A stretch of 64,000 nt of DNA from positions 124,808 to 188,807 of the forward strand of contig JACPLF010000006.1 in NCBI GenBank assembly GCA_016186645.1, written 5' to 3'. Shown here in pieces: positions 14,503-44,180 of the stretch (the stretch's first letter is position 1; each line of letters starts with the position of its first letter). The translations under genes and the position numbers were made by a program. The DNA comes from Candidatus Levyibacteriota bacterium. Its GTDB lineage: Bacteria > Patescibacteriota > Microgenomatia > Levybacterales > UBA12049. The notes under the pieces were generated by a model that was not told where the DNA came from, searched no databases, and saw nothing but the letters and a program-made list of their open reading frames with translations.

Positions 14503-14513
14503 GATTTAAGAAT
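14481..14513. repeat. 33-bp direct repeat copy 1 spanning the murE stop codon (AGAATTAAGATTTAAGAATTAAGATTTAAGAAT)
   Basis: Near-identical (32/33) to 15852-15884. Encodes the ...ELRFKN* C-terminus. Confidence 0.6.
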
Positions 14514-15873: not shown

Positions 15874-15884
15874 GATTTAATAAT
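15852..15884. repeat. 33-bp direct repeat copy 2 spanning the murC stop codon
   Basis: AGAATTAAGATTTAAGAATTAAGATTTAATAAT. MurC therefore also ends ...ELRFKN*. Confidence 0.6.
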
Positions 15885-15885
15885 T

Positions 15886-17223
15886 ATGGAGAAAATTGTT
15901 ATAAAAGGCGGAAAAAGATTAACAGGCAGTATTTTTGTATCCGGAGCCAAAAATGTGGCTTTGAAAGCCATGGTGGCTGCATGTTTGACAGATGAGAAAG
16001 TGACAATAAAAAATATTCCTTTAATTTCTGATTTTATGGTTATGGTTGCAATAATAAAGGAATTAGGAGGAAAGGTTAAGGTCGTTGATCATATTGTCCA
16101 TATTCACATGAAGAAATTCAAGAAAGAAAAAATTTCCTTGGAAGAAGCAGGCAAAATACGAACATCTGTTATGTTTCTAGCCCCGCTTTTGGCCAGAATG
16201 GGAAAAGCAATTATTCCTAACCCCGGAGGATGCAGAATCGGAGCAAGGCCAATAGACAGAACCGTAGAAGGTCTTGAGAAAATGGGCTATTCAGCTTCAT
16301 ACAAAAGTAAAGACGGATTTTTCTATTTGCATAGCAAAAGTGAGCCTGCAAAAAAAGAGATTGTTTATAAATTTGAAAAAAGCACTCATACCGGCACTGA
16401 GACTCTTATTATGGTTGCATGTCTTTTAAATGGTACAAAAATAACTTTGGAAAATGCTGCTGCAGAGCCTGAAATAGATGAGTTAATAAATCTTCTTAAT
16501 CAGATGGGTGCTAAAATTTTAAGAACCAAAGAGAGAACAATAGTTATACAGGGTGTTGAGAAATTGAAGGGAACAGAATTTACCATAGATTCAGACAGAA
16601 ATGAAATTGTTACCCTTGCTGTTGCGGCTATTGTTACAAAAGGAGATATTCTAGTGAAAGGGGTGCAAAATGTTGACCTATCTCCCTTTATTCAAAGACT
16701 TGAGCTAGCCGGTGGAGGAGTAGAGCAAAAAAAAGAAGGAATCAGGTTTTTTTATAAAGGAGAATTAAATAAAGTTGATGTTGAGACCTCAATTTATCCC
16801 GGTTTTATGACGGATTGGCAAGGACCTTGGGCGATACTTATGACTCAGGCAAAGGGAGAGTCAATAATTCATGAAACAGTTTATGAAAATAGATTCGGAT
16901 ATGTTAAAGAGCTTGGAAAAATGGGAGCGGATATAGCTCTTTTTAATCCTGAAATAAAAAATCCTGAAAAAGTTTACAATTTTAATCTGTCCGACAACGA
17001 TGATTCCTATTTCCATGCAATAAAAGTAAAAGGCCCAACAAAATTACATAACGGCGTTGTTGAGATTTCAGATTTGAGAGCGGGGGCAACTTTGGTTTTG
17101 GCCGCTTTATCAGCAGCAGGAGAAAGTGTAATATTCGGCGTTGAACATTTGGATCGGGGATATGAAAAATTAGAGGCAGGATTGGGAAGTCTGGGTGCTA
17201 ATATAAAAAGAATTCAGGAATAA
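15886..17223 (+). CDS. murA: UDP-N-acetylglucosamine 1-carboxyvinyltransferase MurA
   Basis: MEKIVIKGGKRLTGSIFVSGAKNVALKAMVAACL is a canonical MurA N-terminus. 445 aa. Confidence 0.85.
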   Translation: MEKIVIKGGKRLTGSIFVSGAKNVALKAMVAACLTDEKVTIKNIPLISDFMVMVAIIKELGGKVKVVDHIVHIHMKKFKKEKISLEEAGKIRTSVMFLAPLLARMGKAIIPNPGGCRIGARPIDRTVEGLEKMGYSASYKSKDGFFYLHSKSEPAKKEIVYKFEKSTHTGTETLIMVACLLNGTKITLENAAAEPEIDELINLLNQMGAKILRTKERTIVIQGVEKLKGTEFTIDSDRNEIVTLAVAAIVTKGDILVKGVQNVDLSPFIQRLELAGGGVEQKKEGIRFFYKGELNKVDVETSIYPGFMTDWQGPWAILMTQAKGESIIHETVYENRFGYVKELGKMGADIALFNPEIKNPEKVYNFNLSDNDDSYFHAIKVKGPTKLHNGVVEISDLRAGATLVLAALSAAGESVIFGVEHLDRGYEKLEAGLGSLGANIKRIQE

Positions 17224-20695: not shown

Positions 20696-20752
20696 TTCGG
20701 CAATATTCGGTAAGATATGGCAACATTCGGCAATATCTGGTAATATAGATTC

Positions 20753-21736
20753 ATGAAGATTCCGCCGGTATATACGATTTCATGTAAAATGCTGTCGCTT
20801 ATCACCAAAATTGAGGCAGAAAGATTGCATTTTTCCTCTTTAAGTCTTCCTGAAGAGCTGAAAGAAAATATACAAAGAATAAGTCTTCTGAAAAGTTCCC
20901 TTTTTTCTGCTCGTATTGAAGGAAATCCGCTTAATGTCTCTGATTTTGAATATGGGGCAGAAGCGGAAGAAGAAAAGAAGAAAGAGATATTTAATATTCT
21001 TAAGGCAATAAATTTTATAGATAAAAATACAAAAAAGGGCATTACGAAAGATTTAATTTTACATTTACATGTCTTGGCTTTGAAGAATATCTCATCGAAT
21101 GGCGGTAATTTTCGAAATGAAGTAAGCGCGATTTTTAATCAGGCGGGAGTTGCTGTTTATATGCCGCCACCGCCATCCATGATCTCGAAATCGTTAAACG
21201 AACTCTTAATTTACATAAATTCAAAGACAGAAAAATTTCCTCTTATCACTTCTTTCACCGCGCATCTAATTTTCGAAAAAATTCATCCTTTTTTAGATGG
21301 AAATGGCAGAGTCGGCAGGCTTCTAATTTCGGCGATTCTAAAATCAAAAGGTTGGGATTTTACCTTTACGGTACCTTTTGAAGAATATCTTGAGGAACAT
21401 AAAGACGAATATTATTTTCATTTAAGTAGCGGATTGAAGAATGCCAATGATTATCTTGAATTTATGCTTGACGCATTCTACAAACAAATACAAAAAATAA
21501 AAGATCAGATTGATCAGGAAATTGCCAAAGAATCGCATCCATTCCTTCCGCCCCGTCAGGAAGAAATACTTAATATCATTAAAGATCAGATCGTTGTGTC
21601 TTTTGATATGATAAGAAGGCGATTCCTTCGGGTACCGCAAAGGACACTCCGCTGGGATCTAAAAAAACTTCTTGATAGAAGACTTATTGAAAAAAGCGGT
21701 GCAACAAGAGGAAGATATTACAGGATAAGAAAATAG
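20753..21736 (+). CDS. Fic family protein (class II, with N-terminal inhibitory motif)
   Basis: Fic motif HPFLDGNGRVGRLL. Upstream SARIEGN matches the [S/T]xxxE[G/N] auto-inhibition motif. Confidence 0.8.
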   Translation: MKIPPVYTISCKMLSLITKIEAERLHFSSLSLPEELKENIQRISLLKSSLFSARIEGNPLNVSDFEYGAEAEEEKKKEIFNILKAINFIDKNTKKGITKDLILHLHVLALKNISSNGGNFRNEVSAIFNQAGVAVYMPPPPSMISKSLNELLIYINSKTEKFPLITSFTAHLIFEKIHPFLDGNGRVGRLLISAILKSKGWDFTFTVPFEEYLEEHKDEYYFHLSSGLKNANDYLEFMLDAFYKQIQKIKDQIDQEIAKESHPFLPPRQEEILNIIKDQIVVSFDMIRRRFLRVPQRTLRWDLKKLLDRRLIEKSGATRGRYYRIRK

Positions 21737-21781
21737 ATTTTTTTCTTGACAAAATAAAAATTCTATATTATTATTCGGCTT

Positions 21782-22021
21782 ATGGGGCGTCATAAAGAAA
21801 GATTACCTAAATCACCTGATCCAGCTGTTTCTACAAAAACCGTTACGAGACATGGTAAGCGTGTGGAAGTAACAAGTGTAGATCTTAGCAGGGTTACTGG
21901 TTCTTCTGAGCCTAATATAGGAGACGAAGAGCGCATACAAAGAGTGCTGGAAGAAATACGGGACGCAGAACGAACCCCATTCCATGTTCGCGGAAGACAC
22001 TCGAGGCGCGGGGAGAGATAA
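21782..22021 (+). CDS. small basic hypothetical protein (weak)
   Basis: 79-aa ORF preceded by TTGACA. Overlaps an antisense ORF. Coding status uncertain. Confidence 0.25.
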   Translation: MGRHKERLPKSPDPAVSTKTVTRHGKRVEVTSVDLSRVTGSSEPNIGDEERIQRVLEEIRDAERTPFHVRGRHSRRGER

Positions 22022-22033
22022 ATTAAGGTTAGT

Positions 22034-22062
22034 TTGTATATAAACCTTCGGAATAGTATAAT
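22034..22062 (+). promoter_or_regulatory. sigma70-like promoter TTGTAT-17-TATAAT immediately upstream of mraY (leaderless geometry)
   Basis: -35 at 22034-22039, -10 at 22057-22062. The mraY ATG at 22069 is 7 nt downstream. Confidence 0.4.
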
Positions 22063-22068
22063 ATCCCA

Positions 22069-23076
22069 ATGGCGCAGCTTTTGGGGCTAATTCTTTTGTC
22101 TCTTTTTATAACAGGAATTCTTCTCATACCCTTCATAGATTTTCTTTACAAAATGAAGCTAAGACGTGTCAAGCAGAAGACCGTTGACATGTTTGATAAG
22201 CCAACTCCCACATTTGACAAATTCAACAACTGGAAAGCAGGCACACCTTTTGGGGGTGGAATTTTAATTATTGCGGTAGTGTGCATACTCACTTTCTGGG
22301 CATATGGAATTCTGGAAACGAAAGTTAACGCTTGGCAGCTTTTCGTAATTATGGTTACATTTATTGGTTTTGGGCTTTTGGGTTTTTATGATGATCTGAA
22401 AAAACTGGTTCCAGGGCACAAGGTCTTTTTCGGCTTACGATTCAGGCATAAATTTATAATTCAGTGGATTTTGGCTCTTGTGATAGGAGCTATTTTGTAT
22501 TTTCAGCTTGGGTATTCTTATATTTTTATCTGGGGTTTTGGACTTGCATCCCTTGGGTATCTTTTTATTCCTTTTGCGGCTTTTGTTATCGTCTCTTTTG
22601 CGAACGCTTTTAATATTGCAGATGGTCTGGATGGGCTGGCGTCCGGACTTTTGTTAATTTGTCTTGCGGCTTTTTTGGCAATCACTTCTAATCAGTTGGA
22701 TCAGCCTTTGGGAATTTTTGTTGCCGTACTTATGGGAAGCGTTGGTGCTTTTCTGTACTTTAATATCTACAAGGCAAGGATTTGGTTAGGCGATGTTGGA
22801 GCCTTATCTTTGGGGGCAGTATTAGCTGTAATTGGACTTTTGACCGGAAAAATTATTGCGTTGGCATTTATTGGAGGAGTATTTGTCATAGAAATTGCAT
22901 CATCCTTAATTCAGATTCTTGCCAAAAAATTTCTTCACAGAAAAGTTTTCTTGGCATCTCCATTCCATCTGCTTTTGCAAAAGATAGGTTGGGATGAGCC
23001 AAAAATTGTTATGAGAGCATGGCTTTTGGGATTCCTTTTTGCTATCTTAGGGCTATACATCGCATTTATTAACTAA
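22069..23076 (+). CDS. mraY: phospho-N-acetylmuramoyl-pentapeptide transferase MraY
   Basis: Polytopic membrane protein with MraY-typical loops (NAFNIADGLDGLA and GDVGALSLG). Confidence 0.9.
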   Translation: MAQLLGLILLSLFITGILLIPFIDFLYKMKLRRVKQKTVDMFDKPTPTFDKFNNWKAGTPFGGGILIIAVVCILTFWAYGILETKVNAWQLFVIMVTFIGFGLLGFYDDLKKLVPGHKVFFGLRFRHKFIIQWILALVIGAILYFQLGYSYIFIWGFGLASLGYLFIPFAAFVIVSFANAFNIADGLDGLASGLLLICLAAFLAITSNQLDQPLGIFVAVLMGSVGAFLYFNIYKARIWLGDVGALSLGAVLAVIGLLTGKIIALAFIGGVFVIEIASSLIQILAKKFLHRKVFLASPFHLLLQKIGWDEPKIVMRAWLLGFLFAILGLYIAFIN

Positions 23077-25808: not shown

Positions 25809-27101
25809 ATGGTAGATGGAAAAATAGTCGTAGGTGTTGATATCGGTACCTCAAAAATTGTTACTATTATTGCAAGAGTAGAGAATGAAATTGCAAATGT
25901 GTTGGGAGTTTCAGAAGTTGCCTCCCGAGGCGTTAAAAAAGGCCAAATAGTAGACATAAAAGAAGCAGTTGAATCTATTAATAATTCACTTGATGGAGCC
26001 GAAAGAATGGCTGGCTACTCTGTCTCTCATGTGGCTGCTTCAATCGGCGGAGGACATATTGAGTCTCAAAATTCAAGAGGCGTTGTTGCAGTATCATCTC
26101 CTCAAGGGGAAATAACCGAAAGTGATCTTGCTCGCGTAATTGATGCGGCTAAAGCAGTTTCTCTTCCATCGAGCCGCCAAATTGTTCATGTTTTGCCTCG
26201 TAATTATGTTGTTGATGGACAAGAAGGAATAAAAGATCCAATTAGTATGACTGGGATAAGGCTTGAGGTAGATACTCATATTATCTCAGCTGCTTCCACG
26301 TCTTTAATGAATTTAGAAAAAGCTTTTTCCCAGGTTGGTATCGATATTGATGGGGTTGCTTTCAGCGGATATGCATCCAGCCTTTCGGTTTTGTCGGAAA
26401 CGGAAAAAGAATTAGGAGTTGTATGCGTAGATATTGGAGCGGGAACAACAGACATATCGATTTATTCGGAAGGATCAGTCGCATATTCTTCCGTATTACC
26501 AATTGGCGCCAGACATATAACAAATGATTTAGCAATAGGTCTTAGAATTTCTTTGGAGAGCTCTGAAAAAATTAAAATTTATTTATCCAATACCCGAAAA
26601 AACCCAAAAATAGAAAGACTTGGAGAAACATTTGAAAAAGAAAATATAAATAGAGATGAAGTAGACTTAAGCTCTCTAGGTCTGCCGGAGGATCTTAGAA
26701 AAGTTTCTCACAAAACATTAACAGATGGAATAATTAGGCCTCGGCTTAATGAAATTTTTACCATGATAGGAATAGAAATTAAAAGGTCAGGATACGCGGG
26801 ACAAACACCTGCGGGGATTGTAATAACAGGAGGCGGAGCGTTAACTGTTGGAATAGCAGATAGCGCCAAAAGAACTTTGGCAATGCCGGTCAGAATTGGG
26901 CTGCCAATTAATATAAAGGGCCTAATTGATGAAATAGAAACCCCTGCTTTCGCAACTGTTGTAGGGCTTGCGGTTTTCGGCGGCAGTCTTGATGTGAGAA
27001 AATCTTTGCCTTTCGGAATTAGTCTTCCTTCCTTGGGAAATTTGGGATTTAACAAAGCGCTTTCCCGTCTTATAAATTTAATCAAATCCTTCATGCCATA
27101 A
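25809..27101 (+). CDS. ftsA: cell division protein FtsA
   Basis: Actin-like ATPase motifs (VVGVDIGTSKIV and CVDIGAGTTDISIY). C-terminal amphipathic ...LINLIKSFMP*. Confidence 0.85.
   Translation: MVDGKIVVGVDIGTSKIVTIIARVENEIANVLGVSEVASRGVKKGQIVDIKEAVESINNSLDGAERMAGYSVSHVAASIGGGHIESQNSRGVVAVSSPQGEITESDLARVIDAAKAVSLPSSRQIVHVLPRNYVVDGQEGIKDPISMTGIRLEVDTHIISAASTSLMNLEKAFSQVGIDIDGVAFSGYASSLSVLSETEKELGVVCVDIGAGTTDISIYSEGSVAYSSVLPIGARHITNDLAIGLRISLESSEKIKIYLSNTRKNPKIERLGETFEKENINRDEVDLSSLGLPEDLRKVSHKTLTDGIIRPRLNEIFTMIGIEIKRSGYAGQTPAGIVITGGGALTVGIADSAKRTLAMPVRIGLPINIKGLIDEIETPAFATVVGLAVFGGSLDVRKSLPFGISLPSLGNLGFNKALSRLINLIKSFMP
27081..27101. repeat. ftsA 3'-end sequence ATCAAATCCTTCATGCCATAA (copy A, inside ftsA)
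   Basis: Direct repeat with 34138-34161 and 34971-34995. Confidence 0.6.
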
Positions 27102-34000: not shown

Positions 34001-34136
34001 TCAAAGAAGAGGATTGGCCGCTATTTTTGGAGATGAACATACAACAGTTGCTCCAGATTTTGAAGCTTTGATCGAACAAAGTATGTACAAATTTGATGAA
34101 GACATAGAAGCGTATTTACGAGATAAAACTATATAA
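31014..34136 (+). CDS. giant (1040 aa) transglutaminase-like, coiled-coil and von Willebrand factor A (MIDAS) fusion protein
   Basis: Transglutaminase core Cys-His-Asp context (ECYSANTLFIAMLRKIGIPARLVIGH...GHAWTEVWDG...RMDATP). Q/E/D-rich low-complexity linker and a heptad-like charged region. vWA MIDAS motifs DVSGSM, GGTN and GDGEDT. Confidence 0.7.
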   Translation: MDMDTERGEIPRPPQKDGLAREKIFLAEQASEGDLKVVPGKNWAFHYPHGAQARSDAISGLLDGRTKPEDVLGDLKPDAFTYDVADLEHQGLVSVAGRVRDVSAYVTHYDYSRFAQFVASLQGTGITPDTAQSLYDGIAQNRIRKKMIEAYGYTGRKQMEEALKLEAERAVQQIGSLPRVEKVLAALKMNWMAEDQLARTEQRDQTVGQLSPDERQLYDLLRDPYQDYVRRGDQSAYESLVNGVKENIPKIQQEPEKPEEPQRDEAQEKLEEELEEYKDEAVPPVTPGDPGIPPEDSDEYHTPSSPPWESEEEASSHPYFEITPNGTSTKPMTGYYASGRKSHYDIDQKTWSKKKQLVSYGANINGNERQTISATVGKGLTSIPIPNGYGLDMQSLKFTGDRPEIFRDQNGCFYIKTDGGSTFSIDFLKENPVFSGSPIADDIVPIHRGQLSIETENAMTGLVGSDLEKAEALRKYLLSKHFYPGDGDLQMAQALQLKLRSESAGDNYIQNLDKSEYLECYSANTLFIAMLRKIGIPARLVIGHRVENAKNGKASINSTTGHAWTEVWDGSAWRRMDATPRPKQQKKDQKGDSNSPTQEAQDGGIEGQGQPQQDQPQQGQGSQSGESMPGQQMGEASDQDIAQGESQLDNAQQFSEHLEQEKQSLDQKLENAESFQDLKKLEQEAQESDLFDDMKQDLQDRLEAKEEQMKEAIKENLDEMVQDGFLDEERRQELERQLEENKLEELDRIRQQIERESRLFNEYQDIKEEVAPLVDQWFDYFVERLPRQKEVELDEDSLTRQGAFNRHSVMKPRNLLFGTVKNPRVIKPSIKPKFLASVMVDVSGSMAGEKLNMARKQLVFYNELFSRISSEFGFIRYANNIFSDNLVELKTYDQDYESPVRYDWGDGTRSTIKARLMQALHTQGGTNMLPAIQKAAADLNKETFEYPDYASAFYFVGDGEDTSGNSARIKEFLGLLDSEHGFGEHMLSAIMLGDESQRRGLAAIFGDEHTTVAPDFEALIEQSMYKFDEDIEAYLRDKTI

Positions 34137-34137
34137 A

Positions 34138-34161
34138 CTCGTCAAATCCTTCCTGCCCTAA
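34138..34161. repeat. ftsA 3'-end-like direct repeat copy B (CTCGTCAAATCCTTCCTGCCCTAA)
   Basis: Non-coding copy 2 nt after the vWA gene stop. Would encode LVKSFLP*, compared with the ftsA C-terminus IKSFMP*. Confidence 0.6.
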
Positions 34162-34823: not shown

Positions 34824-34970
34824 AATCTGAATAAGTTTTGATGTTTCCTCCAAAGGCGGACAGGTCGAAAGATTGAAACGAATTCATTTTCTTTTTTGTT
34901 ATCTCCATACCCGTACAACATTACGCTATAGCGTATCACTGTACCAGCACTAACTTTTTAAGCTATAAAA

Positions 34971-34995
34971 CTTCGTCAAATCCTTCATGCCATAA
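34971..34995. repeat. ftsA 3'-end-like direct repeat copy C (CTTCGTCAAATCCTTCATGCCATAA)
   Basis: Non-coding copy about 60 nt upstream of purN. Preceded by the 14-bp palindrome TACGCTATAGCGTA at 34922-34935. Confidence 0.6.
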
Positions 34996-35056: not shown

Positions 35057-35785
35057 ATGAAAGAAAGATTGGCGACTTTAATTTCAGGGGGCGGTACCAC
35101 AATGCAAGCAATCATAGAAGCTTGTCAATCCGGAGAAGTTCCAATGGATATTGCTTGTGTTATTTCCAGCAGTCCTACTGCTGGCGGAATAGAAAAAGCA
35201 AAGCGCTTAGGAATTCCGGACAAAGATATTGTTGTGATTGATCCAAATAAATTTAAGGGTAGAGATAAAAAAATGGATCAAGACGCATTCGGTTTTGCAA
35301 TTTTACAAACACTACGAAAACGCGGGGTAACTGTTGTTACTCAAAATGGCTGGCTGCCCCTAACTCCACAAAGTGTTATAGATGAATATTCAGATGCGAT
35401 ATTTAATCAACACCCAGGCCCGGTACCGGAATTTGGAGGCAAAGGAATGTATGGGAGAAGAGTGCATGCCGCAAGATTGTTGTTTGTTCGGGAAACGAGA
35501 AGAAATTTTTGGACAGAGGCTATTGCTCAAAGAGTCCATAGAAATTTTGATCAAGGATCAGCAGTTAAATCTGAGCAAGTTGATATTCTTCCGGATGATA
35601 CAGCTGAAGATTTACAAAAAAGAGTTTTGCCAATTGAGCATCGAGTGCAAATTGAATTACTTAAGGATGTTGCTCGCGGCAATGTTAAGGAAGTAACAGG
35701 AAGGGAAAAACTTGTACGTCCCGGAGAAGAAAGAATTTTATTTCAGGCAAAAAAAGCAGCAAGATTATTGTATCCGTATGGATAA
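35057..35785 (+). CDS. purN: phosphoribosylglycinamide formyltransferase PurN-like
   Basis: N-terminal ISGGGTTMQAII loop and formyl-transferase fold order. 242 aa. Confidence 0.7.
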   Translation: MKERLATLISGGGTTMQAIIEACQSGEVPMDIACVISSSPTAGGIEKAKRLGIPDKDIVVIDPNKFKGRDKKMDQDAFGFAILQTLRKRGVTVVTQNGWLPLTPQSVIDEYSDAIFNQHPGPVPEFGGKGMYGRRVHAARLLFVRETRRNFWTEAIAQRVHRNFDQGSAVKSEQVDILPDDTAEDLQKRVLPIEHRVQIELLKDVARGNVKEVTGREKLVRPGEERILFQAKKAARLLYPYG

Positions 35786-36893
35786 ACGCAGGGGAAAGAA
35801 AATAACGTATAAATCATCAGGAGTTAATTATCAGGATTTGGATCCTGTGAAAAAACTTGCGCAAAAGGGAGCTTTAAAAACTGCGAGAAATCTTAGGAAA
35901 AACGGATATAAAGAAATTTCTGAGAGCCGAGGAGAATCTGCATTTGTTTGGCAGCAAGGTAATTTTTTGATGGCATCTGTCATTGAAGGACTTGGAACGA
36001 AAAATCTTGTTGCAGATATAACAGCGCAAATTACCGGCAAATCTTATTACGATATTATTGGCCACGATACTGTTGCAACAATAATAAATGATCTGATTGC
36101 TGTCGGAGCAAAACCGTTGACTATAAGTGCGTATTGGGCGGTAGGCCAAAGCGATTGGTTTAAGAATAAAAAAAGGACAAAAGATTTAATAAGGGGATGG
36201 AAAAGAGCATGCAATCTGGCGGGTGTTACGTGGGGCGGCGGAGAAACGCCAACTCTAAAAGGAATAATTCGGGAAGAATCAATAGATCTGGGAGGGTCTG
36301 CGATTGGAATTATTTCTCTAAAGAAAAATCTTATTACGGATAAAAAATTAAAAATTGGCGATAGAATAATACTTTTAAGAAGCAATGGAATAAATGCAAA
36401 TGGATTGTCATTGGCCCGAGCGCTTGCAAAAAATTTACCAAAAGGTTATGCAACAAAACTTCCAAGTGGAAAAATTTATGGAGAAGCGCTTCTTGCAAAA
36501 ACAAATATTTATGCAAAATTAATACAGGATTTGCTAAATGCAGGAATTGACATTCACTATATTTCAAACATAACAGGACATGGACTGCGAAAAATAATGC
36601 GGGCTCGTTTAAATTTTACTTATATAATTGAAAAAATATTTAATCCTCAAGAAATATTTTTATTTATCCAAAAGCACGCAAATTTATCCTCTTACGAAAT
36701 GTATCAAACATTCAATATGGGAATGGATTATGCTTTATTTATTCCTAAAAAAGATATTGAAAAAGCACAAAAAATTATAACTAAAAATAAATTGGAAAGT
36801 ATAGATGCCGGACGAGTTGAGGAAGGAAAAAAACAAGTTGTGATAAAACCAAAAAACATTATTTTTAATGCAGAGACATTGGGAGTTAGATAA
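35778..36893 (+). CDS. purM: phosphoribosylformylglycinamidine cyclo-ligase (AIR synthase) PurM-like
   Basis: Collinear PurM motifs (YKSSGVNYQDL, IEGLGTKNL, GGGETPTLKG, NITGHGLRK and MYQTFNMGMDY). ATG overlaps the purN stop (ATGGATAA). Confidence 0.75.
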   Translation: MDKRRGKKITYKSSGVNYQDLDPVKKLAQKGALKTARNLRKNGYKEISESRGESAFVWQQGNFLMASVIEGLGTKNLVADITAQITGKSYYDIIGHDTVATIINDLIAVGAKPLTISAYWAVGQSDWFKNKKRTKDLIRGWKRACNLAGVTWGGGETPTLKGIIREESIDLGGSAIGIISLKKNLITDKKLKIGDRIILLRSNGINANGLSLARALAKNLPKGYATKLPSGKIYGEALLAKTNIYAKLIQDLLNAGIDIHYISNITGHGLRKIMRARLNFTYIIEKIFNPQEIFLFIQKHANLSSYEMYQTFNMGMDYALFIPKKDIEKAQKIITKNKLESIDAGRVEEGKKQVVIKPKNIIFNAETLGVR

Positions 36894-36949: not shown

Positions 36950-38062
36950 ATGTTAATAAAGCCTCAAACAACAAATTTCGCAAAGATTAGGGTCATGGGG
37001 ATTGGCGGAGGGGGAATGAATGCCCTTAACTCTATGATTACCTCAAGCGAAGTCAAGGGTGTAGATTTTATTTCAGTTAATACAGATGCGCAGGTTCTTC
37101 TTTTATCCAAAGCCCAAACAAAAATCCAAATAGGTGAAAATTTGACAAAAGGACTAGGAAGCGGGGGAAATCCGGATATAGGACGTCAGGCTGCAGAAGA
37201 ATCTTACGAAAAAATAAAGGAATTTATTGATGGATCGGACATGGTTTTTATAACTGCGGGTATGGGAGGCGGAACAGGAACCGGATCAAGTTCTGTTATT
37301 GCTAGAGCGGCAAAAGAAATCGGAGCTCTGACAGTTGCAGTCGTCACCAAGCCTTTCGCTTTTGAAGGAACCAGAAGAATGGTGGCAGCAGAAGATGGAA
37401 TAGAGGAGCTTCGGGAAAAAGTCGATACATTAATCGTTATTCCAAATCAGAGAATTTTGGATGTTGTTGATAAGAAAGTTTCTCTTCTTGAAGCTTTTAG
37501 AATTGCAGATTCCGTATTAACTCAAGGAGTACAGGGAATTTCGGATTTAATTACCATTCCGGGCCTAATCAATGTTGATTTTGCTGATGTAAAAGCAATT
37601 ATGAGTTCTGCTGGATCAGCTCTTATGGGAATTGGAACCGGATCTGGGGAAAATAGAGCACAAATTGCAGCAAGATCGGCAATCGCATCTCCTCTTTTGG
37701 AAATTTCTATGGATGGAGCGCGCGGAGTCTTGTTTAATATTACCGGAGGACCTGATTTGACAATGACAGAGGTTGATGACGCAGCCAAAATTATTTCAGC
37801 AGCAGCAGATCCGGATGCGAATATTATTTTCGGCGCCACAATTGATGAGGCAATGCATGACCAGATAAAAATTGCAGTTATCGCAACCGGATTTGATCAC
37901 ACCCGCCAAACTCTCAAAGAATTTGTAAAGCCAATTGTGAATATGGCACCCTTGAAGATTGAAGTTAAAGATAGCCAAGAGCCAACGCCACAGGAGCCTC
38001 CTCAGGAGGACAATAACGACGACGCCTGGGACATTCCCGCTTTTTTGAGGCAGAGGAATTAA
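36950..38062 (+). CDS. ftsZ: cell division protein FtsZ
   Basis: Tubulin signature GGGTGTG, N-terminal [14 protein letters not shown] and C-terminal conserved peptide [10 protein letters not shown]. Confidence 0.9.
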
Positions 38063-38073
38063 TCAAAAAAGGG
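38036..38073. repeat. ftsZ 3'-end sequence (copy Z0) CCCGCTTTTTTGAGGCAGAGGAATTAATCAAAAAAGGG
   Basis: Direct repeat family with copies at 39776-39815, 39834-39865 and 40492-40522. Confidence 0.6.
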
Positions 38074-38152
38074 ACTTCGCTTCGGCTACAGCCCGCATTC
38101 TTAAGCTATTGACTTGTTACATTCTTCTGTGGTATAGTATAAATACTAAATC

Positions 38153-38193
38153 GCCCTGTGAGGTCGTAAGACATTTGCAGGGCTTTATTTTTT
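38153..38193 (+). terminator. rho-independent terminator downstream of ftsZ (GCCCTG-19 nt-CAGGGC + TTTATTTTTT)
   Basis: 6-bp GC-rich stem followed by a 10-nt T-rich tract. Confidence 0.55.
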
Positions 38194-38209
38194 GCTGTAA
38201 TATCAACAT

Positions 38210-38746
38210 GTGAAGCAAAAATGTATAATTCTAATCGATGGAAGTAACTTTTATTTCAAGCTTAAAGATTTAGACCTACACAATCTTTTATCTTTTGACT
38301 TCAGTCTTTTCATTCAGCTTATTGCCAGGTCTTGCAAAGTTGTAAATGCATGTTACTATGTTGGCCGAATTAGACAAGATGGAAGCAGTAAAACCAATAA
38401 ACTTTTTGATAGCCAACAAAAATTGCTTGGTAATCTTAAGAAGCATAGTATTTCATATCAGTTTGGTTACTTATTAAAAAGCGGAGGAGCGTATCATGAA
38501 AAAGGTGTTGATGTACAGATTGCAGTAGATATGTTGGTTTCTGCTTACGAAAATGTTGCGGATCGGATTATTCTTGTCTCTTCCGATACTGATTTAGCGC
38601 CTGCAATCAAAAAGGTGCGTGAAAAAGGGAAAATCGTAGAATACATAGGATTTTCCCACAAACCGAGTGTCGCAATGGTTAGTTTTTGTTCGGAATCAAC
38701 ATTATTAAAAAAAGAGGATTTACTACCTTTTATCAAATCTAAATAA
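38210..38746 (+). CDS. NYN/LabA-like (PIN-fold) domain protein
   Basis: CIILIDGSNF start, KGVDVQIAVDM and ILVSSDTDLAPAI motifs typical of LabA/NYN domains. Confidence 0.6.
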   Translation: MKQKCIILIDGSNFYFKLKDLDLHNLLSFDFSLFIQLIARSCKVVNACYYVGRIRQDGSSKTNKLFDSQQKLLGNLKKHSISYQFGYLLKSGGAYHEKGVDVQIAVDMLVSAYENVADRIILVSSDTDLAPAIKKVREKGKIVEYIGFSHKPSVAMVSFCSESTLLKKEDLLPFIKSK

Positions 38747-38847
38747 ATAATCCCTTAGCCTCAAAACCGCGTCGTAATATAGTCATTGTGCGACATGAAT
38801 TTTGTAGTATATAAAAATAAAATATGAAAATGATATAATTCTTAGGA

Positions 38848-39624
38848 ATGAAGAACGACCTTAAAAAACATAACAGTCTTATCCTTCCTACGCCTCAAGA
38901 GCTCAAAAGAATAAGCGTATCTGACAAACGAGCTGCGGTTGCAAAAATCATAGATATTGTTGGAGGTCTATTTCAATATAATACGAAAGAGTGGATTAAG
39001 ACTGGTGGAAATCTCATCTCTGCATGGTTATCTAACGACCTTGGAGGTGAGGCAAGATTTCAAATGCAAAAGTTGCTTGAAACAGGAAAGTCAAAGAAAG
39101 AAGCCTATGAGACAAGAGAGGGATGGACAAACATTTCTGATGTATTTGGTTATCTCTATTCGGACAAAGCACCGAATGCGGTAGTATTTAATGCACTAAA
39201 GGCAATTCAAATTTCAACAACTGAAAGTACTCCAAGCGAAACGGAATTATTGAAGGCAAATTCGTTCATAAGAATAGTGAAATCGCTAAATCCTGATGAT
39301 ATTCGAGTAATGTTTGCAGCTTATGAGCTCTACAAAAAATACAAAAAAGGGGAATCCTCGAAGATTTCCACTTTTCAGGATTGGTATATTGCTATTTCTG
39401 ATATGGTTAATTTGCCAATAGACAGTGTGGTTGATACGAGGATGAAATATGACTCTGCAGTGAATGGCTTTGCGGGTACATCACTCTTCGGATTATCAGA
39501 ACCTTCCTCATCTACAGTCGGAATGCCAAACGCTGGTTTAAACGCTTTGTCCATTGGAATATGTGAAATGGTGGAAAAGGGAAATGAGATGCTACTGTCA
39601 ATTGATGTAGAAGAAGAAAAATAA
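38848..39624 (+). CDS. hypothetical protein (258 aa)
   Basis: ORF only. No motif recognised. Confidence 0.4.
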   Translation: MKNDLKKHNSLILPTPQELKRISVSDKRAAVAKIIDIVGGLFQYNTKEWIKTGGNLISAWLSNDLGGEARFQMQKLLETGKSKKEAYETREGWTNISDVFGYLYSDKAPNAVVFNALKAIQISTTESTPSETELLKANSFIRIVKSLNPDDIRVMFAAYELYKKYKKGESSKISTFQDWYIAISDMVNLPIDSVVDTRMKYDSAVNGFAGTSLFGLSEPSSSTVGMPNAGLNALSIGICEMVEKGNEMLLSIDVEEEK

Positions 39625-39775
39625 GCATGAGTTCGTATATGCTTCAAGTCTTTAATTTTTAATTGACTTCTTTCTGTCAAACTGTTAAATTCTATTTGAA
39701 GACTTAAAAAGGTAAACACTTCAATCGGGTGCTTTTTAAGATTGTAGCTTCAAAAGTAGGGAATGACTTATAAAT

Positions 39776-39815
39776 CCCCGCTTTTTTGAGACAAAGAAAT
39801 TAGTCAAAAAAGTGG
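39776..39815. repeat. ftsZ 3'-end-like direct repeat copy Z1
   Basis: CCCCGCTTTTTTGAGACAAAGAAATTAGTCAAAAAAGTGG, about 34/40 identical to Z0. Confidence 0.6.
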
Positions 39816-40480
39816 ACGTCGCTGCTGCTCCAGCCCGCCTTTCTAAGACAGAGGAATTAAATTTCATTTGGATCTTGACTTTTTCAATTCTGGTTGCTAG
39901 AATGAGCCAAATGAATAGACAAGAAACCGAATATTCAGAACCATTAGTTCATGCTGAAAGCCTAAGTACATTGGAACGTGAAACTGCCAGCGAGTTTGGC
40001 GCAATGGTAGATGGATTATTGAGAGATGCGCCGAATGTTGCCGTTCAAGGAAGATATGCGCATGATAAACCGTCCATAAACAAGGGTATAGAATTCGAAT
40101 TCGGAAATAGCACTGTAAAAGCCTCGTTTTTTGAAAGCTTTGGATCACCCCCCGCTTATCGTCTTGAAATCATAACTCCTATTATTGTTGACAATTTGCA
40201 ACACGATTCAAATTCAAGGTTAGGATTATCTCCTCTAAATCCGCATGAATTTGTCGAATTTAGAGGAGATCCTCAAGCTGGGTCGGTTTCTGTGCGGGTA
40301 CGAGCAGTCGATCAGTTAGATCATTCTGGTAACGAAATGACCCTTACTAGATATACTGCAGGAGGTCTACTGCCGCCAATTAATACTTTAGGAGAAGGTA
40401 AAATCGAAGCATTCGAGAGCGTAATTAAGTTATTTAAGAATGTAGTTCCTCAGAACCCAGTTTATAGAAAACGATTCTAG
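39812..40480 (+). CDS. hypothetical protein; the real start is probably the internal Met at about 39901 (MSQMNRQ...)
   Basis: The track ORF N-terminus overlaps repeat Z2. No motif recognised. Confidence 0.4.
   Translation: MDVAAAPARLSKTEELNFIWILTFSILVARMSQMNRQETEYSEPLVHAESLSTLERETASEFGAMVDGLLRDAPNVAVQGRYAHDKPSINKGIEFEFGNSTVKASFFESFGSPPAYRLEIITPIIVDNLQHDSNSRLGLSPLNPHEFVEFRGDPQAGSVSVRVRAVDQLDHSGNEMTLTRYTAGGLLPPINTLGEGKIEAFESVIKLFKNVVPQNPVYRKRF
39834..39865. repeat. ftsZ 3'-end-like direct repeat copy Z2
   Basis: CCCGCCTTTCTAAGACAGAGGAATTAAATTTC, in tandem with Z1. Confidence 0.55.
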
Positions 40481-40491
40481 CTACTTGCAAA

Positions 40492-40522
40492 TGCCGCATT
40501 TTTAAGACAGAGGAATTAGAAG
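40492..40522. repeat. ftsZ 3'-end-like direct repeat copy Z3
   Basis: TGCCGCATTTTTAAGACAGAGGAATTAGAAG. Confidence 0.55.
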
Positions 40523-41127
40523 CCGAGCTTTTCTTTGACGAGGATTAAAGTTAATCTGTTTGGAGAAATTTCTTTATTTATTATTAAAAGCTTGCTTACA
40601 TTACTTTCAACTCCATAAATTTTTCTTAATCTTTTCGATTCAAGAGGCAAAACATATTCATAAATTCTCTTCAAACCTTCATCCAAATGTGCAACTATTT
40701 TTTGAGTACCGACAATCCAAATAACATGAGAAGCTGCATAAGCATATGCAGGCAATTGGCTTCCTGTATTTGAAGCAATTATTACTTTTCCATCTTCTGT
40801 CACAGCGTGTATGCTCCCAACAGCGTATTCTGGTGCAGTTCCGATCCTCTGCATTTCTCTGTCTTGAGTTGCCCGATACATTTTTGAAAGTTTATTCTTG
40901 ACAGAGTCATATTTGCCCGATTCATTTATCTCCTTGGGAAGGCCTAAAGTATCAATGGTAACAGAACTCATATTCATTACTTCAGCTCCCTGAGGTAATA
41001 ATTCTAACACTTTATTTTTCGCTTCAATTCCATTATCAACAACAAGCGCGTCAATCCCATTAGCTTTTAAATTTTCAATAGTTTTTGCGATTGATTCATC
41101 GTCGGCCAATTCACTCCAATTTTTCAT
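40516..41127 (-). CDS. LUD (lactate-utilisation, LutC/YkgG-like) domain protein
   Basis: VGSIHAVTEDGKVIIASNTGSQLPAYAYAASHVIWIVGTQKIV matches the LUD-domain core. 203 aa. Confidence 0.55.
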   Translation of the reverse strand: MKNWSELADDESIAKTIENLKANGIDALVVDNGIEAKNKVLELLPQGAEVMNMSSVTIDTLGLPKEINESGKYDSVKNKLSKMYRATQDREMQRIGTAPEYAVGSIHAVTEDGKVIIASNTGSQLPAYAYAASHVIWIVGTQKIVAHLDEGLKRIYEYVLPLESKRLRKIYGVESNVSKLLIINKEISPNRLTLILVKEKLGF

Positions 41128-41147
41128 AATCTAAGTATATCACGTTC

Positions 41148-41176
41148 TTGATACAGTATAGCTTTTAAGCTACAAT
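41148..41176 (+). promoter_or_regulatory. sigma70-like promoter TTGATA-17-TACAAT upstream of ileS
   Basis: Seen directly. Divergent from the LUD gene. Confidence 0.4.
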
Positions 41177-41228
41177 TAAATCTATGTTCACCCCGTTACA
41201 GATACGGGGAAGTTTTATTGTTTTGTTT

Positions 41229-44180
41229 ATGAAAAAAGATAAATCTGTAACGGGGTTCAAGCCTGTAAATCCCAAAGTTGATTTTCCAAAATTGGAGAGA
41301 GATCTTCTTGAAAAATGGTACAAAAGCGGAATTGTTGATAAATATTTAAAGAAAAATAGCTCTTCGAAAGAAAAGTTTTCTTTTCTAGATGGTCCAATAA
41401 CTGCAAATAATCCAATGGGCGTTCATCATGCATGGGGAAGAACATATAAAGATTTTTGGCAAAGATTTTGGAATATGAATGGAAAAAAACAAAGATTTCA
41501 GAACGGATTTGACGAGCAAGGACTTTGGGTGGAAGTAGAAGTAGAAAAAGAATTAGCACTCAGAAATAAAAAAGAAATAGAAAATCTTATTCCCGGCGAC
41601 AAATTCAAGAGCTTGGAAAAATTTATTAATCTTTGCAAGGAGAGGGTAAAAAAATTTTCTGCGATCCAAACGGAACAATCAAAAAGACTTGGGTATTTTA
41701 TGGATTGGAACAATTCTTACCATACTTCTTCTGATGCAAATAATTACGCAATTTGGAATTTCCTAAAAGTTGTCAATGAGAAAGGTTGGTTGTACAAAGG
41801 ACATGATACAGTTCCTTGGTGTCCAAGGTGTGGAACTGCAATCTCTCAGCACGAAATTCTAACTGAAGATTATAGGGTTGTTAATCACGAAACCGTCTTA
41901 TTTAAATTACCTGTTTTGAATGAAGATTATAGTTTGCTTGTTTGGACAACAACCCCATGGACGATTCCAGCAAACGTCTCTGTGGCTGTTAACCCAAAGT
42001 TTAAATATAGAGTCTGGGAATATAAGGGTGAAAAGCTAATCATTGTTTCTCCAGATGAAATAAGAAAAAAAGGAAAAAGTTCGGAATATGATACTGAGCA
42101 ATTTCAGTGGTACGAAGACAATATAATCAAGGCAGGTTTTGAACATAAAGGAGGAGTTGACGATATTGACGGTAAAGACTTAGTCGGTAAAAAATATAAA
42201 GGTCCATTTGATTCTCTCGCTAGGGTTGAAAAGGCTAAGCTTGAAAACCCCGAGACTTTCCACGTTATTGTTGCTGCAGAAGACTTGGTAGTTGGAAATA
42301 AAGGAACTGGATTGCTTCATCTGGCTCCTGCGGCTGGGGAGGAAGACTTTAAAATTGCTAAGGATAAAAAGTTATCAATAATTGAAGTTATAGATGAAGA
42401 AGCAAATTATTTAAATGATATGGGCGAATTCAGTGGAAGAAACGCCAAGAAACATCCAGAAATAATTGTGGATTTCTTGAAGAATAAGGAGGATGGCAAA
42501 TTTCTCCATGCAACACCCAAAATTGAGCATCGTTATCCAATTTGTTGGAGATGTAAAAAGGAGCTTGTTTGGAGAGTAGTTGATGAATGGTATATAGCAA
42601 TGGACCGCCCTTCGCTTAAAGCTTCGGACGGCAAATCAACCTTCAGAGAAATGATGATAGGAGTTGCAAGAAAAATCACTTGGATGCCGGATTGGGGATT
42701 AGATCGTGAGTTGGATTGGCTCAAGAATATGCACGATTGGCTTATTAGTAAAAAAAGATATTGGGGACTAGCTTTACCCATTTGGGAATGCAATAAATGT
42801 GGAAATTTTGAAGTAATTGGCTCAAAAGATGATTTGAAAAATAAAGCTGTTGAAGGATGGAAAAAGTTTGAGGGCAATAGTCCACATAGGCCATGGGTGG
42901 ATCAAGTAAAAATTAAATGCAGTAAATGCGGTGAAAAAATTTCAAGAATTCCAGATGTGGGAAATCCTTGGCTTGACGCTGGAATTGTTCCCTTCTCAAC
43001 TTTGCCAAATGAATGGTTCCCGGCAGATTTTATTACGGAAAGTTTTCCGGGACAATTTAAGAATTGGTTTTACTCTTTAATTGCAATGAGCACGGCACTA
43101 AAAAATACAAACTCTTTTGAGAGAGTGCTTGGGTTTGGATCTGTAAGAGATGAAAAAGGAGAAGAAATGCACAAGAGTAAAGGTAATTCCATTGAATTTA
43201 ATGAAGCGGCAGACAAGGCAGGAGTAGATGTTATGAGGTGGTTATATCTTAGAACAAATCCTGAGCATAATGTAAATTTTGGATACGGAGTCCTAGATGA
43301 ATTGAGACGCATGTTCGTTATAAAACTGTGGAATGTATATAGTTTTTTTGTGACTTACACGAATTTTTACAAATTTGATCCTTCCAAAATGGAATTTGAA
43401 TCCGAAAGCATTTTGGATAAGTGGATATTGTCTAGAATGAACGGAAGTATTTCAAATATAACTCGTTCTGTAGAAAAATACGATGCCATGGATGCAATGG
43501 GGTTGATAGAAATATTTATTGATGATCTTTCCAATTGGTATGTGAGGAGAAGTAGGGAAAGAGTTAAAGAAAATAGTCAAGATGCAAAGGATACTCTAAA
43601 GACTTTATGGACTGTATTAACTACTTATTCTAAAGTGCTTGCTCCGTTCGTGCCGTTTATGTCTGACGAAATTTTTACAAATCTTACAGCTGAGGAATCA
43701 GTTCACTTATCTGATTGGCCAAAGTCCAACTCAAAACTAATTGTGAATGAACTGGAAAAACAAATGGCCTGGGCCAGAGTTATATCTTCGGGAATTTTAG
43801 AGCTTCGTAAGTCTAACAATATCAAAGTTAGGATTCCGCTTCGTGAATTAAATTATAACGGACCAGTAGAATTATCAAAAGAAATCTTACAAATAGTCCT
43901 TGAAGAAACAAATGTCTATAAATTGAAGTACATTGGTAAAAAGGATGAATTTGGTTTGGGGGGCGATGTGGATGAGGAAAATCAAGATATTGATGCTGGG
44001 GAAGCAAGAGATATTGTTAGAAGAATTCAAGCCGAGAGAAAAACATTAGGTACGACATTTGATGAAAAAGTAAATGTAATTATTGAAAATTGGCCAAAAG
44101 AATTTGAAGAAGATATAAAGAAAAAAGCGATGGTCGGGAGTCTGCAAAAAGGTCCGAAATTCCTAGTTACTCGCAAATGA
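41229..44180 (+). CDS. ileS: isoleucine--tRNA ligase (type 2, Zn-finger containing)
   Basis: Class I motifs (PMGVHHAWG, KSKGN), editing domain and CxxC zinc knuckles (CPRCGT, CWRCKKEL). An alternative start lies at 41184. Confidence 0.9.
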   Translation: MKKDKSVTGFKPVNPKVDFPKLERDLLEKWYKSGIVDKYLKKNSSSKEKFSFLDGPITANNPMGVHHAWGRTYKDFWQRFWNMNGKKQRFQNGFDEQGLWVEVEVEKELALRNKKEIENLIPGDKFKSLEKFINLCKERVKKFSAIQTEQSKRLGYFMDWNNSYHTSSDANNYAIWNFLKVVNEKGWLYKGHDTVPWCPRCGTAISQHEILTEDYRVVNHETVLFKLPVLNEDYSLLVWTTTPWTIPANVSVAVNPKFKYRVWEYKGEKLIIVSPDEIRKKGKSSEYDTEQFQWYEDNIIKAGFEHKGGVDDIDGKDLVGKKYKGPFDSLARVEKAKLENPETFHVIVAAEDLVVGNKGTGLLHLAPAAGEEDFKIAKDKKLSIIEVIDEEANYLNDMGEFSGRNAKKHPEIIVDFLKNKEDGKFLHATPKIEHRYPICWRCKKELVWRVVDEWYIAMDRPSLKASDGKSTFREMMIGVARKITWMPDWGLDRELDWLKNMHDWLISKKRYWGLALPIWECNKCGNFEVIGSKDDLKNKAVEGWKKFEGNSPHRPWVDQVKIKCSKCGEKISRIPDVGNPWLDAGIVPFSTLPNEWFPADFITESFPGQFKNWFYSLIAMSTALKNTNSFERVLGFGSVRDEKGEEMHKSKGNSIEFNEAADKAGVDVMRWLYLRTNPEHNVNFGYGVLDELRRMFVIKLWNVYSFFVTYTNFYKFDPSKMEFESESILDKWILSRMNGSISNITRSVEKYDAMDAMGLIEIFIDDLSNWYVRRSRERVKENSQDAKDTLKTLWTVLTTYSKVLAPFVPFMSDEIFTNLTAEESVHLSDWPKSNSKLIVNELEKQMAWARVISSGILELRKSNNIKVRIPLRELNYNGPVELSKEILQIVLEETNVYKLKYIGKKDEFGLGGDVDEENQDIDAGEARDIVRRIQAERKTLGTTFDEKVNVIIENWPKEFEEDIKKKAMVGSLQKGPKFLVTRK

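Follow-up and report, generated by a model that had tools for sequence, protein, structure and literature searches.

The lambdoid phage 21 and e14 integrate into the 3' end of icd in E. coli, mobilisable islands of the Salmonella genomic island 1 (SGI1) type occupy the 3' end of trmE, with similar islands at guaA or yicC, and tycheposons and other tRNA-gene islands form arrays with partial attachment (att) repeats. The dusA-specific integrases are a further case, in which one group of enzymes is dedicated to a single conserved protein-coding gene in hundreds of genomes and carries prophages and genomic islands (Farrugia et al., NAR 2015, PMC4482086). The subject of the present analysis is a 64-kb stretch of low-GC DNA (hereafter the window), which represents a division and cell-wall (dcw) cluster whose closest public relatives are Candidatus Levyibacteriota and other Microgenomates of the Patescibacteria, and in which the 3' end of the division gene ftsZ recurs several times downstream of the gene. 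These repeats are likely to be the att cores of mobile elements that integrate site-specifically into the last ~30 nt of ftsZ, and the window itself is best read as an integrase-less, partly decayed tandem stack of three units, named here after their products as the NYN, 258-aa (amino acid) and 192-aa units.

The ftsZ gene of the window (36950-38062, + strand) is full length with a canonical C-terminal peptide, matches the Pfam families Tubulin (5e-49) and FtsZ_C (1.5e-36), and is 94% and 88% identical to its counterparts in the related loci L081 and L082, respectively. A search pattern obtained by back-translation of its last eight codons plus stop, CCNGCNTTYYTRAGRCARAGRAAYTAR, has exactly four matches in the 64 kb, at 38036, 39777, 39834 and 40493 (the last with one mismatch), and no match in 100 dinucleotide-preserving shuffles; the four copies of the ftsZ 3' terminus that the sequence-only reading had described are therefore real, and the positions it gave were correct within 1-3 nt. 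A repeat search returned the same arrangement as a 39-nt family with four members (identity 100/87/62/64%), and the peptide of the full copies 1-4 is (P/A)AFLRQRN followed by a stop, PAFLRQRN and the stop being the last nine codons of ftsZ. Copy 1 (38033-38062, +; ATT CCC GCT TTT TTG AGG CAG AGG AAT TAA) is the working ftsZ end and is taken as the attL core, copy 2 (39774-39803, +; ATC CCC GCT TTT TTG AGA CAA AGA AAT TAG) is of the attR type, copy 3 (39834-39860, +; CCC GCC TTT CTA AGA CAG AGG AAT TAA) differs at 4 nt, all of them synonymous, and copy 4 (GCC GCA TTT TTA AGA CAG AGG AAT TAG), which together with the module remnant CTACTTGCAAAT occupies 40481-40519 (+), overlaps the stop codon of a convergent LUD-domain gene. 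Homology also extends beyond the stop codons, as 41 nt on the 3' side of copy 1 (38065-38105) are 78% identical to those on the 3' side of copy 2 (39807-39847), which implies a fifth, truncated copy (CCCGCATTCTTAAG, 38092-38105) and a left direct repeat of ~73 nt (38033-38105 against 39774-39847).

A chance low-complexity resemblance or an assembly artefact might be suspected in an AT-rich genome with T- and A-runs in the motif. The empty shuffles speak against the former, the ftsZ-end pattern was found in at least 12 other genomes, and an independent assembly, L174, spans copies 2-4 and is 100% identical over 38170-41450, so the array is not an artefact of assembly; the probability left to this explanation is negligible. 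Two other independent short-read assemblies, L175 and L176, are likewise 100% identical to the window and both stop at 39749-39761, 13-25 nt before copy 2; these contig ends could reflect assembly-graph branching, i.e., population heterogeneity at this att copy.

The copies diverge from ftsZ in the manner of coding sequence. In the window, 11 of the 12 codons changed relative to ftsZ are synonymous, and among the changed codons of 23 copies from 12 genomes, 99 are synonymous and 9 nonsynonymous, the synonymous share expected at random being 22%; the synonymous changes include switches between six-fold codons (TTG to CTT, AGA to CGG, AGC to TCT). Moreover, the copies almost always match the FtsZ peptide variant of their own genome (RQRN, RNKN, RNRN, RQKN, and PTFLRQIR in Curtissbacteria), with L167 and L168 as exceptions. 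Nonsynonymous changes are seen in the oldest copies, with one in window copy 4 (AAFLRQRN) and two in its orthologue at L081 6543-6569 (FAFLRQGN followed by a stop), upstream of which L081 retains a fuller module; copy 4 appears to be the oldest relic of the array, and incipient nonsynonymous change is as expected of that. All ftsZ-end copies lie downstream of ftsZ and on its strand, with none upstream or on the opposite strand in the 106 loci compared. Between the nearest upstream stop codon and the copy, 15 of 24 copies, including all three downstream copies of the window, have no in-frame start; copy 2 is directly preceded by an in-frame TAA, copy 3 lies in frame behind the TAG of copy 2, and copy 4 lies in frame behind the TAG of the 192-aa gene. 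Because the divergence is synonymous and yet a start codon is mostly missing, the copies seem to carry the history of a translated ftsZ end and not to be translated in place, and their conservation fits sequences that have acted, or have to be capable of acting, as the real end of ftsZ. Translated C-terminal tags and stop read-through were considered as well and rejected on the same shortage of start codons and on the lack of conservation of the reading frames.

The best-preserved counterparts of the array carry an integrase. In L085, the first gene after ftsZ encodes a tyrosine recombinase (PF00589, E = 1e-36), and the 7.7-kb interval that begins at the ftsZ end encloses this integrase and is closed by an arm-like stretch (hereafter module) plus an ftsZ-end copy. 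The L085 integrase has 699 homologues at E up to 1e-10, the best 120 of which are 53-73% identical, and the homologues with source names are labelled Patescibacteria or a member lineage. The flanks of ten homologues were looked up. For one of them, the contig stops 220 nt beyond the gene; the other nine have readable flanks, and each of these is located immediately 3' of ftsZ, in one or the other orientation, which with L085 itself makes 10/10. In the five elements with both repeats in reach (L085, L161, L167, L168 and L177), the integrase was always located in the first repeat-to-repeat interval. The cargo behind ftsZ-linked integrases includes helix-turn-helix and Omega-type repressors, toxin-antitoxin pairs, a KAP NTPase and a DnaB-like ATPase, among others. 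The integrase is Xer-like and scores below every curated cut-off, its best NCBIfam model being 'XerA / integron integrase'. On the IMG/VR contig L177, a prophage with a second integrase and, behind it, tail-fibre genes borders on one side of an ftsZ-end copy, and the other side is taken by a small element that encodes an integrase of the family and ends in module plus copy. The contig L179 ends in a family integrase and also encodes a tape-measure protein and an endolysin; the small integrase contigs are either next to ftsZ or too short to tell. Judged from these sequence contexts, the family would be one of Patescibacteria-wide Xer-like tyrosine integrases specific to ftsZ, with the repeats as their att cores. 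A dif/Xer dimer-resolution site, as exploited by integrative mobile elements exploiting Xer (IMEX) at dif, was also examined for the window and rejected; such a site lies at the replication terminus, where the GC skew changes sign, whereas the skew of the window stays positive over the whole 64 kb and does not switch around 38-40 kb.

The surroundings of the copies resemble an att site in integrase-bearing elements. The far-end copy is preceded by a promoter-like site, by the motif AGGTGYTTTTAGTGAAAATGAAGCTA (P arm), which ends ~24 nt before an invariant CCCGC, and by a short stretch resembling the (W/L)DI codons of ftsZ, and the ftsZ-proximal copy is followed, 6 nt after its stop codon, by TAGCTTCAGATTTCCACTAAAGCACCT (P' arm), an inverted repeat of AGGTGYTTTTAGTGAAAATGAAGCTA with arms of ~27 nt. 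Both arms keep fixed distances from the core in six elements, and a circle form would read inverted arm, ~24 nt, core, ~6 nt, other inverted arm. The P' arm and the adjoining GGTGCTTTTTT form an intrinsic terminator for ftsZ. A hidden Markov model (HMM) of the P arm, built solely from integrase-bearing elements, also matches the arms of integrase-less units in L007 and L004 (E = 2e-12 to 5e-3). The proline codon at CCCGC is CCC in nearly all array-bearing genomes and varies in distant lineages.

These features can be joined in a mechanism in which the attP of the element would carry its own synonymous terminal ftsZ codons and stop, placed between the two ~27-nt inverted arms in the best-preserved elements, and would be recombined with the ftsZ end by the Xer-like tyrosine integrase. 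After integration, ftsZ would run into codons and a stop supplied by the element and, in the best-preserved elements, into an intrinsic terminator, and the old ftsZ end would come to lie at the distal end of the insert, where it may persist as an untranslated relic joined to the other arm with its outward-facing promoter. Repeated integration at the gene-proximal site would stack the elements in tandem, the older ones losing their integrase. Since element cores without the correct peptide would damage FtsZ, only synonymous divergence and a match to the peptide variant of the host would be expected. We infer that the L085-family integrase catalyses the reaction, that the crossover lies near GACATYCCCGC, within which CCCGC is invariant, and that the integrase-less units of the window arrived by this route.

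The arms nearest to the integrase may also contain a short open reading frame (ORF) of 19-24 aa that starts with M or L downstream of the promoter-like site and an AGGTG motif (19-21 aa at L085 18759-18843; L161 6939-7001, - strand; L168 3285-3341, - strand; L177 70-126, - strand; L007 13767-13826). It would encode a copy of the partner-binding peptide of FtsZ, and its equivalents in decayed units are broken. The FtsZ C-terminal peptide docks FtsA and other partners, and the copies might accordingly be working C-termini of micro-proteins that mimic this peptide and compete for FtsA or SepF, purifying selection leaving only synonymous divergence. The promoter-like site, AGGTG motif and possible ORF of the integrase-nearest modules and the usual agreement of the copies with the peptide variant of the resident FtsZ would suit such a role. 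It is hard to reconcile with the missing start codons and the TAA in front of copy 2, with the frame over the conserved TGAAGCTAGAAA, which differs in L167 and so indicates that the motif is conserved as DNA, and with the nonsynonymous changes gained by the orthologous old copies (window copy 4 and L081 6543), and we consider it very unlikely.

Comparison with relatives places the copies at the boundaries of variable gene units, as the sequence-only reading had proposed. Aligned with L081, the window loses homology 1 nt behind the ftsZ stop codon, regains it for ~120 nt across the module and copy 2 (~70% identity), loses it once more directly behind the stop codon of copy 2, and matches again at copy 4 and in the LUD gene; the intervening genes are unrelated. 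Presence/absence variation among relatives likewise has its breakpoints at the repeats, with the window and L081 differing in this way and L082 and L001 lacking the array; in L082 (88% FtsZ identity), ftsA and ftsZ are followed by a small membrane-protein gene and ileS, and distant copies are missing. In L002 and L003, the ftsZ ends are identical, a second copy follows 19 nt on, and the two sequences diverge immediately after it. Arrays of two to four copies were found in L004, L083, L161 and L167, single extra copies in L081, L085, L007, L168 and L009, and flanking ftsZ-end repeats in L004, L081, L083, L085, L161, L167, L168 and L177. Extra copies are present in 6/10 loci at FtsZ identities of at least 75%, in 2/37 at 60-75% and in 0/59 below 60%. 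A precise empty site for an integrase-bearing element was sought by comparing L168 with L145, the flanks of which were too divergent. In L127, which belongs to a distant lineage of the candidate phyla radiation, the ftsZ 3' end occurs as a 128-nt direct repeat (1235-1362 and 5871-5998, 77% identical, 10:1 synonymous to nonsynonymous) that brackets 4.6 kb with five ORFs; no integrase was noticed in this interval, the ORFs of which were not run against any family library.

Several observations weigh against site-specific integration as the origin of the array. By tblastn, no integrase of the L085 family was found in the 64-kb window, and none was found in the flanks of L001-L160 except L085, most array-bearing loci having none in their 10-kb flanks. 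The best window match of the P-arm HMM (39703-39775), although in register with copy 2, is weak (E = 0.36). The attL and attR sites share just 5-11 identical bases around CCCGC. A pattern scan of viral contigs for a free attP or an excised circle gave 110 matches, none of them with ftsZ-end coding sequence and hence chance matches, and an FtsZ query did not find ftsZ in viral contigs. L001 has the NYN unit only, in the same place and without repeats, and the repeat lengths of 73 nt (window left) and 128 nt (L127) exceed the typical core. Finally, copy-spacer-copy units with a compensated hairpin, which are treated below, are not predicted by a simple att model. The window array shows the flanking repeats, the intact target gene and the breakpoints at the repeats that define elements integrating into a gene's 3' end; having no integrase inside it, it is classed as a relic or satellite array and not as an autonomous element, and its units could owe their present state to decay after integration, to an integrase acting in trans, or to homologous recombination.

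Part of this evidence would also suit a gain of genes driven by homology with no dedicated recombinase, in which cassettes would pass from strain to strain as circles inserted in the RecA-dependent Campbell manner, or by homology-facilitated illegitimate recombination, the DNA of the C-terminal peptide acting as an anchor that is duplicated on both sides. The 73-nt left repeat of the window, the L127 repeat with its 10:1 ratio, the missing integrase of the window, and the ends of ftsA and murE/murC, which bear the same signature with no recombinase in sight, all point in that direction. Most repeats, however, are just ~27 nt long with 4-11 mismatches (up to 40%), and mismatched repeats of ~27 nt are far below the requirement of RecA. 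The left boundaries cluster at one codon, the integrase is tied to ftsZ in 10/10 contexts and enclosed by the repeats, and the inverted arms around the core point to a site recognised by a protein. Homology-driven gain is accordingly judged unlikely. 

A bolder possibility is that the ftsZ end serves as an integron-like platform, in which integrase-less units of 1-3 genes would not be products of decay but cassettes, excised and re-inserted in trans by a family integrase whose gene resides at another place in the genome or on a co-resident element or phage, with module plus ftsZ end in the role of attC. If true, tiny genomes would possess a shufflable cargo array anchored in an essential gene. 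This possibility is put forward only tentatively, as a rather improbable extension of site-specific integration, and a still bolder addition would have the arm promoter of active elements drive expression of a 19-aa peptide that mimics the C-terminal peptide of FtsZ.

The copy-spacer-copy units occur at 38036-38105 and 39777-39860 of the window and at L083 12996-13077, L002/L003 11078-11150 and L082 11096-11166. In these units, the A-F-L codons of the first copy pair with bases just 3' of its stop codon, the two sides of the stem differing between genomes in a compensatory manner (TTTTTTGA/TCAAAAAA; CGCCTTTTTA/TAAAAAGGCG; CTTCG/CGAAG), and a small GC-rich hairpin and then the second ftsZ-end copy follow; in L002 versus L003, the variable genes start after the second copy of the unit. 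Such pairing, and the folding of the L082 unit with z = -3.4, could suggest that the copies belong to a repeated structural element of RNA or DNA, for instance a terminator, a stabiliser of the 3' untranslated region or a regulatory hairpin, which overlaps the ftsZ stop codon by chance. The folds of the window units are not significant, however (z = 0.21 and -1.65), copies 3 and 4 and most copies elsewhere have no pairing partner, and change at third codon positions fits a protein-coding history and not a helix. With Rfam covariance models, nothing credible was matched in 37900-41300 at E up to 1, which, together with the insignificant folding of the window copies, supports the sequence-only reading in that the copies are not parts of one structured RNA. 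A structural element is thus an extremely unlikely explanation.

Under the preferred reading, that of att cores left by integration into ftsZ, the window array can be followed from left to right. Behind copy 1, an A-rich and GC-rich spacer leads into the truncated fifth copy (38063-38105, +; 78% identical to 39807-39847). The leader of the NYN unit (38109-38195, +), which is conserved in L001, comprises a promoter-like TTGACT-18-TATAGT, a hairpin GCCCTG...CAGGGC and a T-run, and this strong hairpin could be an attenuator-type leader or a small RNA. Cargo gene 1 (38210-38746, +) encodes an NYN/LabA-like nuclease of 178 aa (Pfam NYN 4.7e-23; PADLOC HEC-09 6.8e-18, NYN 1.4e-11) and is 79% identical to the L001 gene in the same position. 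It is followed by a relic arm motif, TTAGCCTCAAAACCGCGTCGTAA...ATTGTGCGACATGAA (38755-38810, +), which has no adjoining ftsZ-end copy and is shared by L004 (12450-12500, directly 3' of an ftsZ-end copy) and L085 (14896-14936, inside the element, 88% identity). The three genomes have in common a conserved 45-55-nt motif, TTAGCYTCAAAAC...ATTGTGCGACATGAA, which could represent another kind of element arm or else a promoter. An apparent inverted 'copy' at 38748-38771 is better explained as this arm motif common to L004 and L085, and was rejected.

Cargo gene 2 (38848-39624, +) encodes a 258-aa protein with no match in Pfam, PADLOC or PHROGs, and its exact-sequence look-up returned only the same arrangement. 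The module on the 5' side of copy 2 (39663-39776, +) resembles a P arm, with a promoter-like TTGACT-17-TAAATT, GGGTGCTTTTT and TAGCTTCAAAAG, and is ~70% identical to L081 5486-5579. The spacer between copies 2 and 3 (39804-39833, +) is homologous to 38063-38091 and forms a hairpin with copy 2 that has a 12-bp stem (z = -1.65). A promoter-like TTGACT-17-TAGAAT and cargo gene 3 (192 aa from ATG 39902) occupy 39875-40480 (+), again with no match in Pfam, PADLOC or PHROGs; neither the 258-aa nor the 192-aa gene has homologues in the ~20 related loci searched. A promoter-like site is present for each of the three window units. The right flank consists of the LUD-domain gene (40516-41127, - strand; Pfam LUD_dom 1.5e-21), which is shared with L081 by synteny, and, to the right of it, ileS (41184-44180).

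This anatomy changes two details of the sequence-only reading. The stretch between copies 1 and 2 had been taken as one cassette holding a terminator, the NYN gene and the 258-aa gene; it probably consists of two units, as L001 has the promoter, hairpin and NYN gene in synteny but no repeats, and the relic arm motif at 38755-38810, a probable unit boundary, separates off the 258-aa gene. The next interval had been credited with a 222-aa ORF whose N-terminus runs through a repeat; that ORF is a mechanical one in another frame, and gene callers start at ATG 39902, which gives 192 aa. Two other variable spots were observed in the window: purN and ftsZ, which directly adjoin each other in L081 (1312-1329), are separated in the window by an AIR-synthase-like (purM-type) gene (35712-36893), and the glmS-mraY gap (20697-22069), another variable spot of the dcw cluster, holds a Fic-domain gene in the window and ~3 kb of different DNA in L082.

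The sequence-only reading had also pointed to similar reiterations at ftsA and murE/murC and argued from them for a shared mechanism. When terminal 27-mers of the window genes were compared with internal ones for recurrence within 12 kb downstream with up to 5 mismatches, 3/53 terminal 27-mers recurred against 2/2120 internal ones, so the enrichment of 3'-end reiteration over controls holds in the window. The ftsA 3' end (NLIKSFMP followed by a stop, 27075-27101) recurs at 34135-34161 and 34969-34995 (KLVKSFLP and NFVKSFMP, each with a stop), and these copies look like FtsA ends from other strains. Enclosed by them are the genes for a 1284-aa AAA_5 protein and for a 1040-aa transglutaminase/VWA protein, whose GC content is 0.41 compared with 0.36-0.37 in the flanks. 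No ftsA-end copies were found in 142 other loci, and L081 is without the copy at 34969. The murE|murC and murC|murA junctions (14476-14515 and 15847-15887) share ~35 nt, comprising ELRFKN with its stop and the following intergenic bases, and these ~35 nt in turn form a 14-nt tandem repeat. Neither the ftsA nor the murE/murC case yielded an integrase. A mechanism common to the three genes is possible, though not shown by these data; the ftsZ case rests on a target-specific enzyme, which argues against a generic mechanism, as ftsA and murE/murC would each need a recombinase of their own.

To our knowledge, very little is known about the mobile elements of this radiation, for which almost no genetic tools exist. 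Here, a specific pairing of integrase and attB was identified, formed by an Xer-like recombinase and the C-terminal codons of ftsZ and widespread in Patescibacteria, and a defined integrase with an attP of ~90 nt could become a tool for site-specific integration. The codons of the FtsZ peptide would be repeatedly overwritten by mobile DNA under the strict constraint of keeping the peptide, and the relic copies would record earlier ends of the gene as a dated stack. In annotation, the relics mark out a hypervariable cargo island that lies between ftsZ and ileS and holds NYN, toxin-antitoxin, KAP-NTPase and nuclease genes, and they explain spurious N-terminal extensions of ORFs.

Full-text literature searches yielded no account of elements that target ftsZ in the candidate phyla radiation; the mechanism proposed here is a classical one, and the pairing of target, host group and integrase family is new relative to the literature searched. 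A parallel in dedication to a single gene is provided by the dusA-specific integrases, which act at the 5' end of dusA in Proteobacteria (PMC4482086), whereas the family described here targets the 3' end of ftsZ in Patescibacteria. The array also resembles integrons in that units of 1-3 genes are split by a short repeated recombination site and in that the recombinase belongs to the Xer/IntI branch. However, its repeats are direct copies of a coding end and not imperfect palindromes of the attC kind, only some of them forming a hairpin with the spacer, its units have promoter-like sites of their own, and insertion takes place at a gene end and not at an attI beside a fixed intI. An integron was rejected on these promoter-like sites and on the integrase scores, which are far below the family cut-offs (TIGR02249, 88 bits against a cut-off of 265; PRK15417, 72 against 435).

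Like tycheposons and other tRNA-gene arrays, the ftsZ end is a hot spot at which cargo units are stacked between degenerate copies of the target 3' end, many of the units having no integrase; those arrays differ in that they target a tRNA or tmRNA gene, use other recombinase families and reside in marine cyanobacteria. With SGI1-type islands, the array shares short direct repeats identical to the terminal bases of a housekeeping gene, tandem arrangement, and a cargo of defence, toxin-antitoxin or resistance genes, whereas SGI1 keeps its integrase and depends on helper plasmids and the window array has no integrase and no known helper. Similar in the form of the junction are phage 21 and e14 at icd, where integration likewise takes place in the 3' coding end, the replacement end is mostly synonymous, the displaced end is left as a downstream relic, and a tyrosine integrase adjoins the att site. 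In the present case, the target is ftsZ, an essential division gene, ~9 codons that form the partner-binding C-terminal peptide are replaced in place of the ~50 codons in icd, the hosts are Patescibacteria, and multiple tandem relics are combined with integrase-less mini-units.

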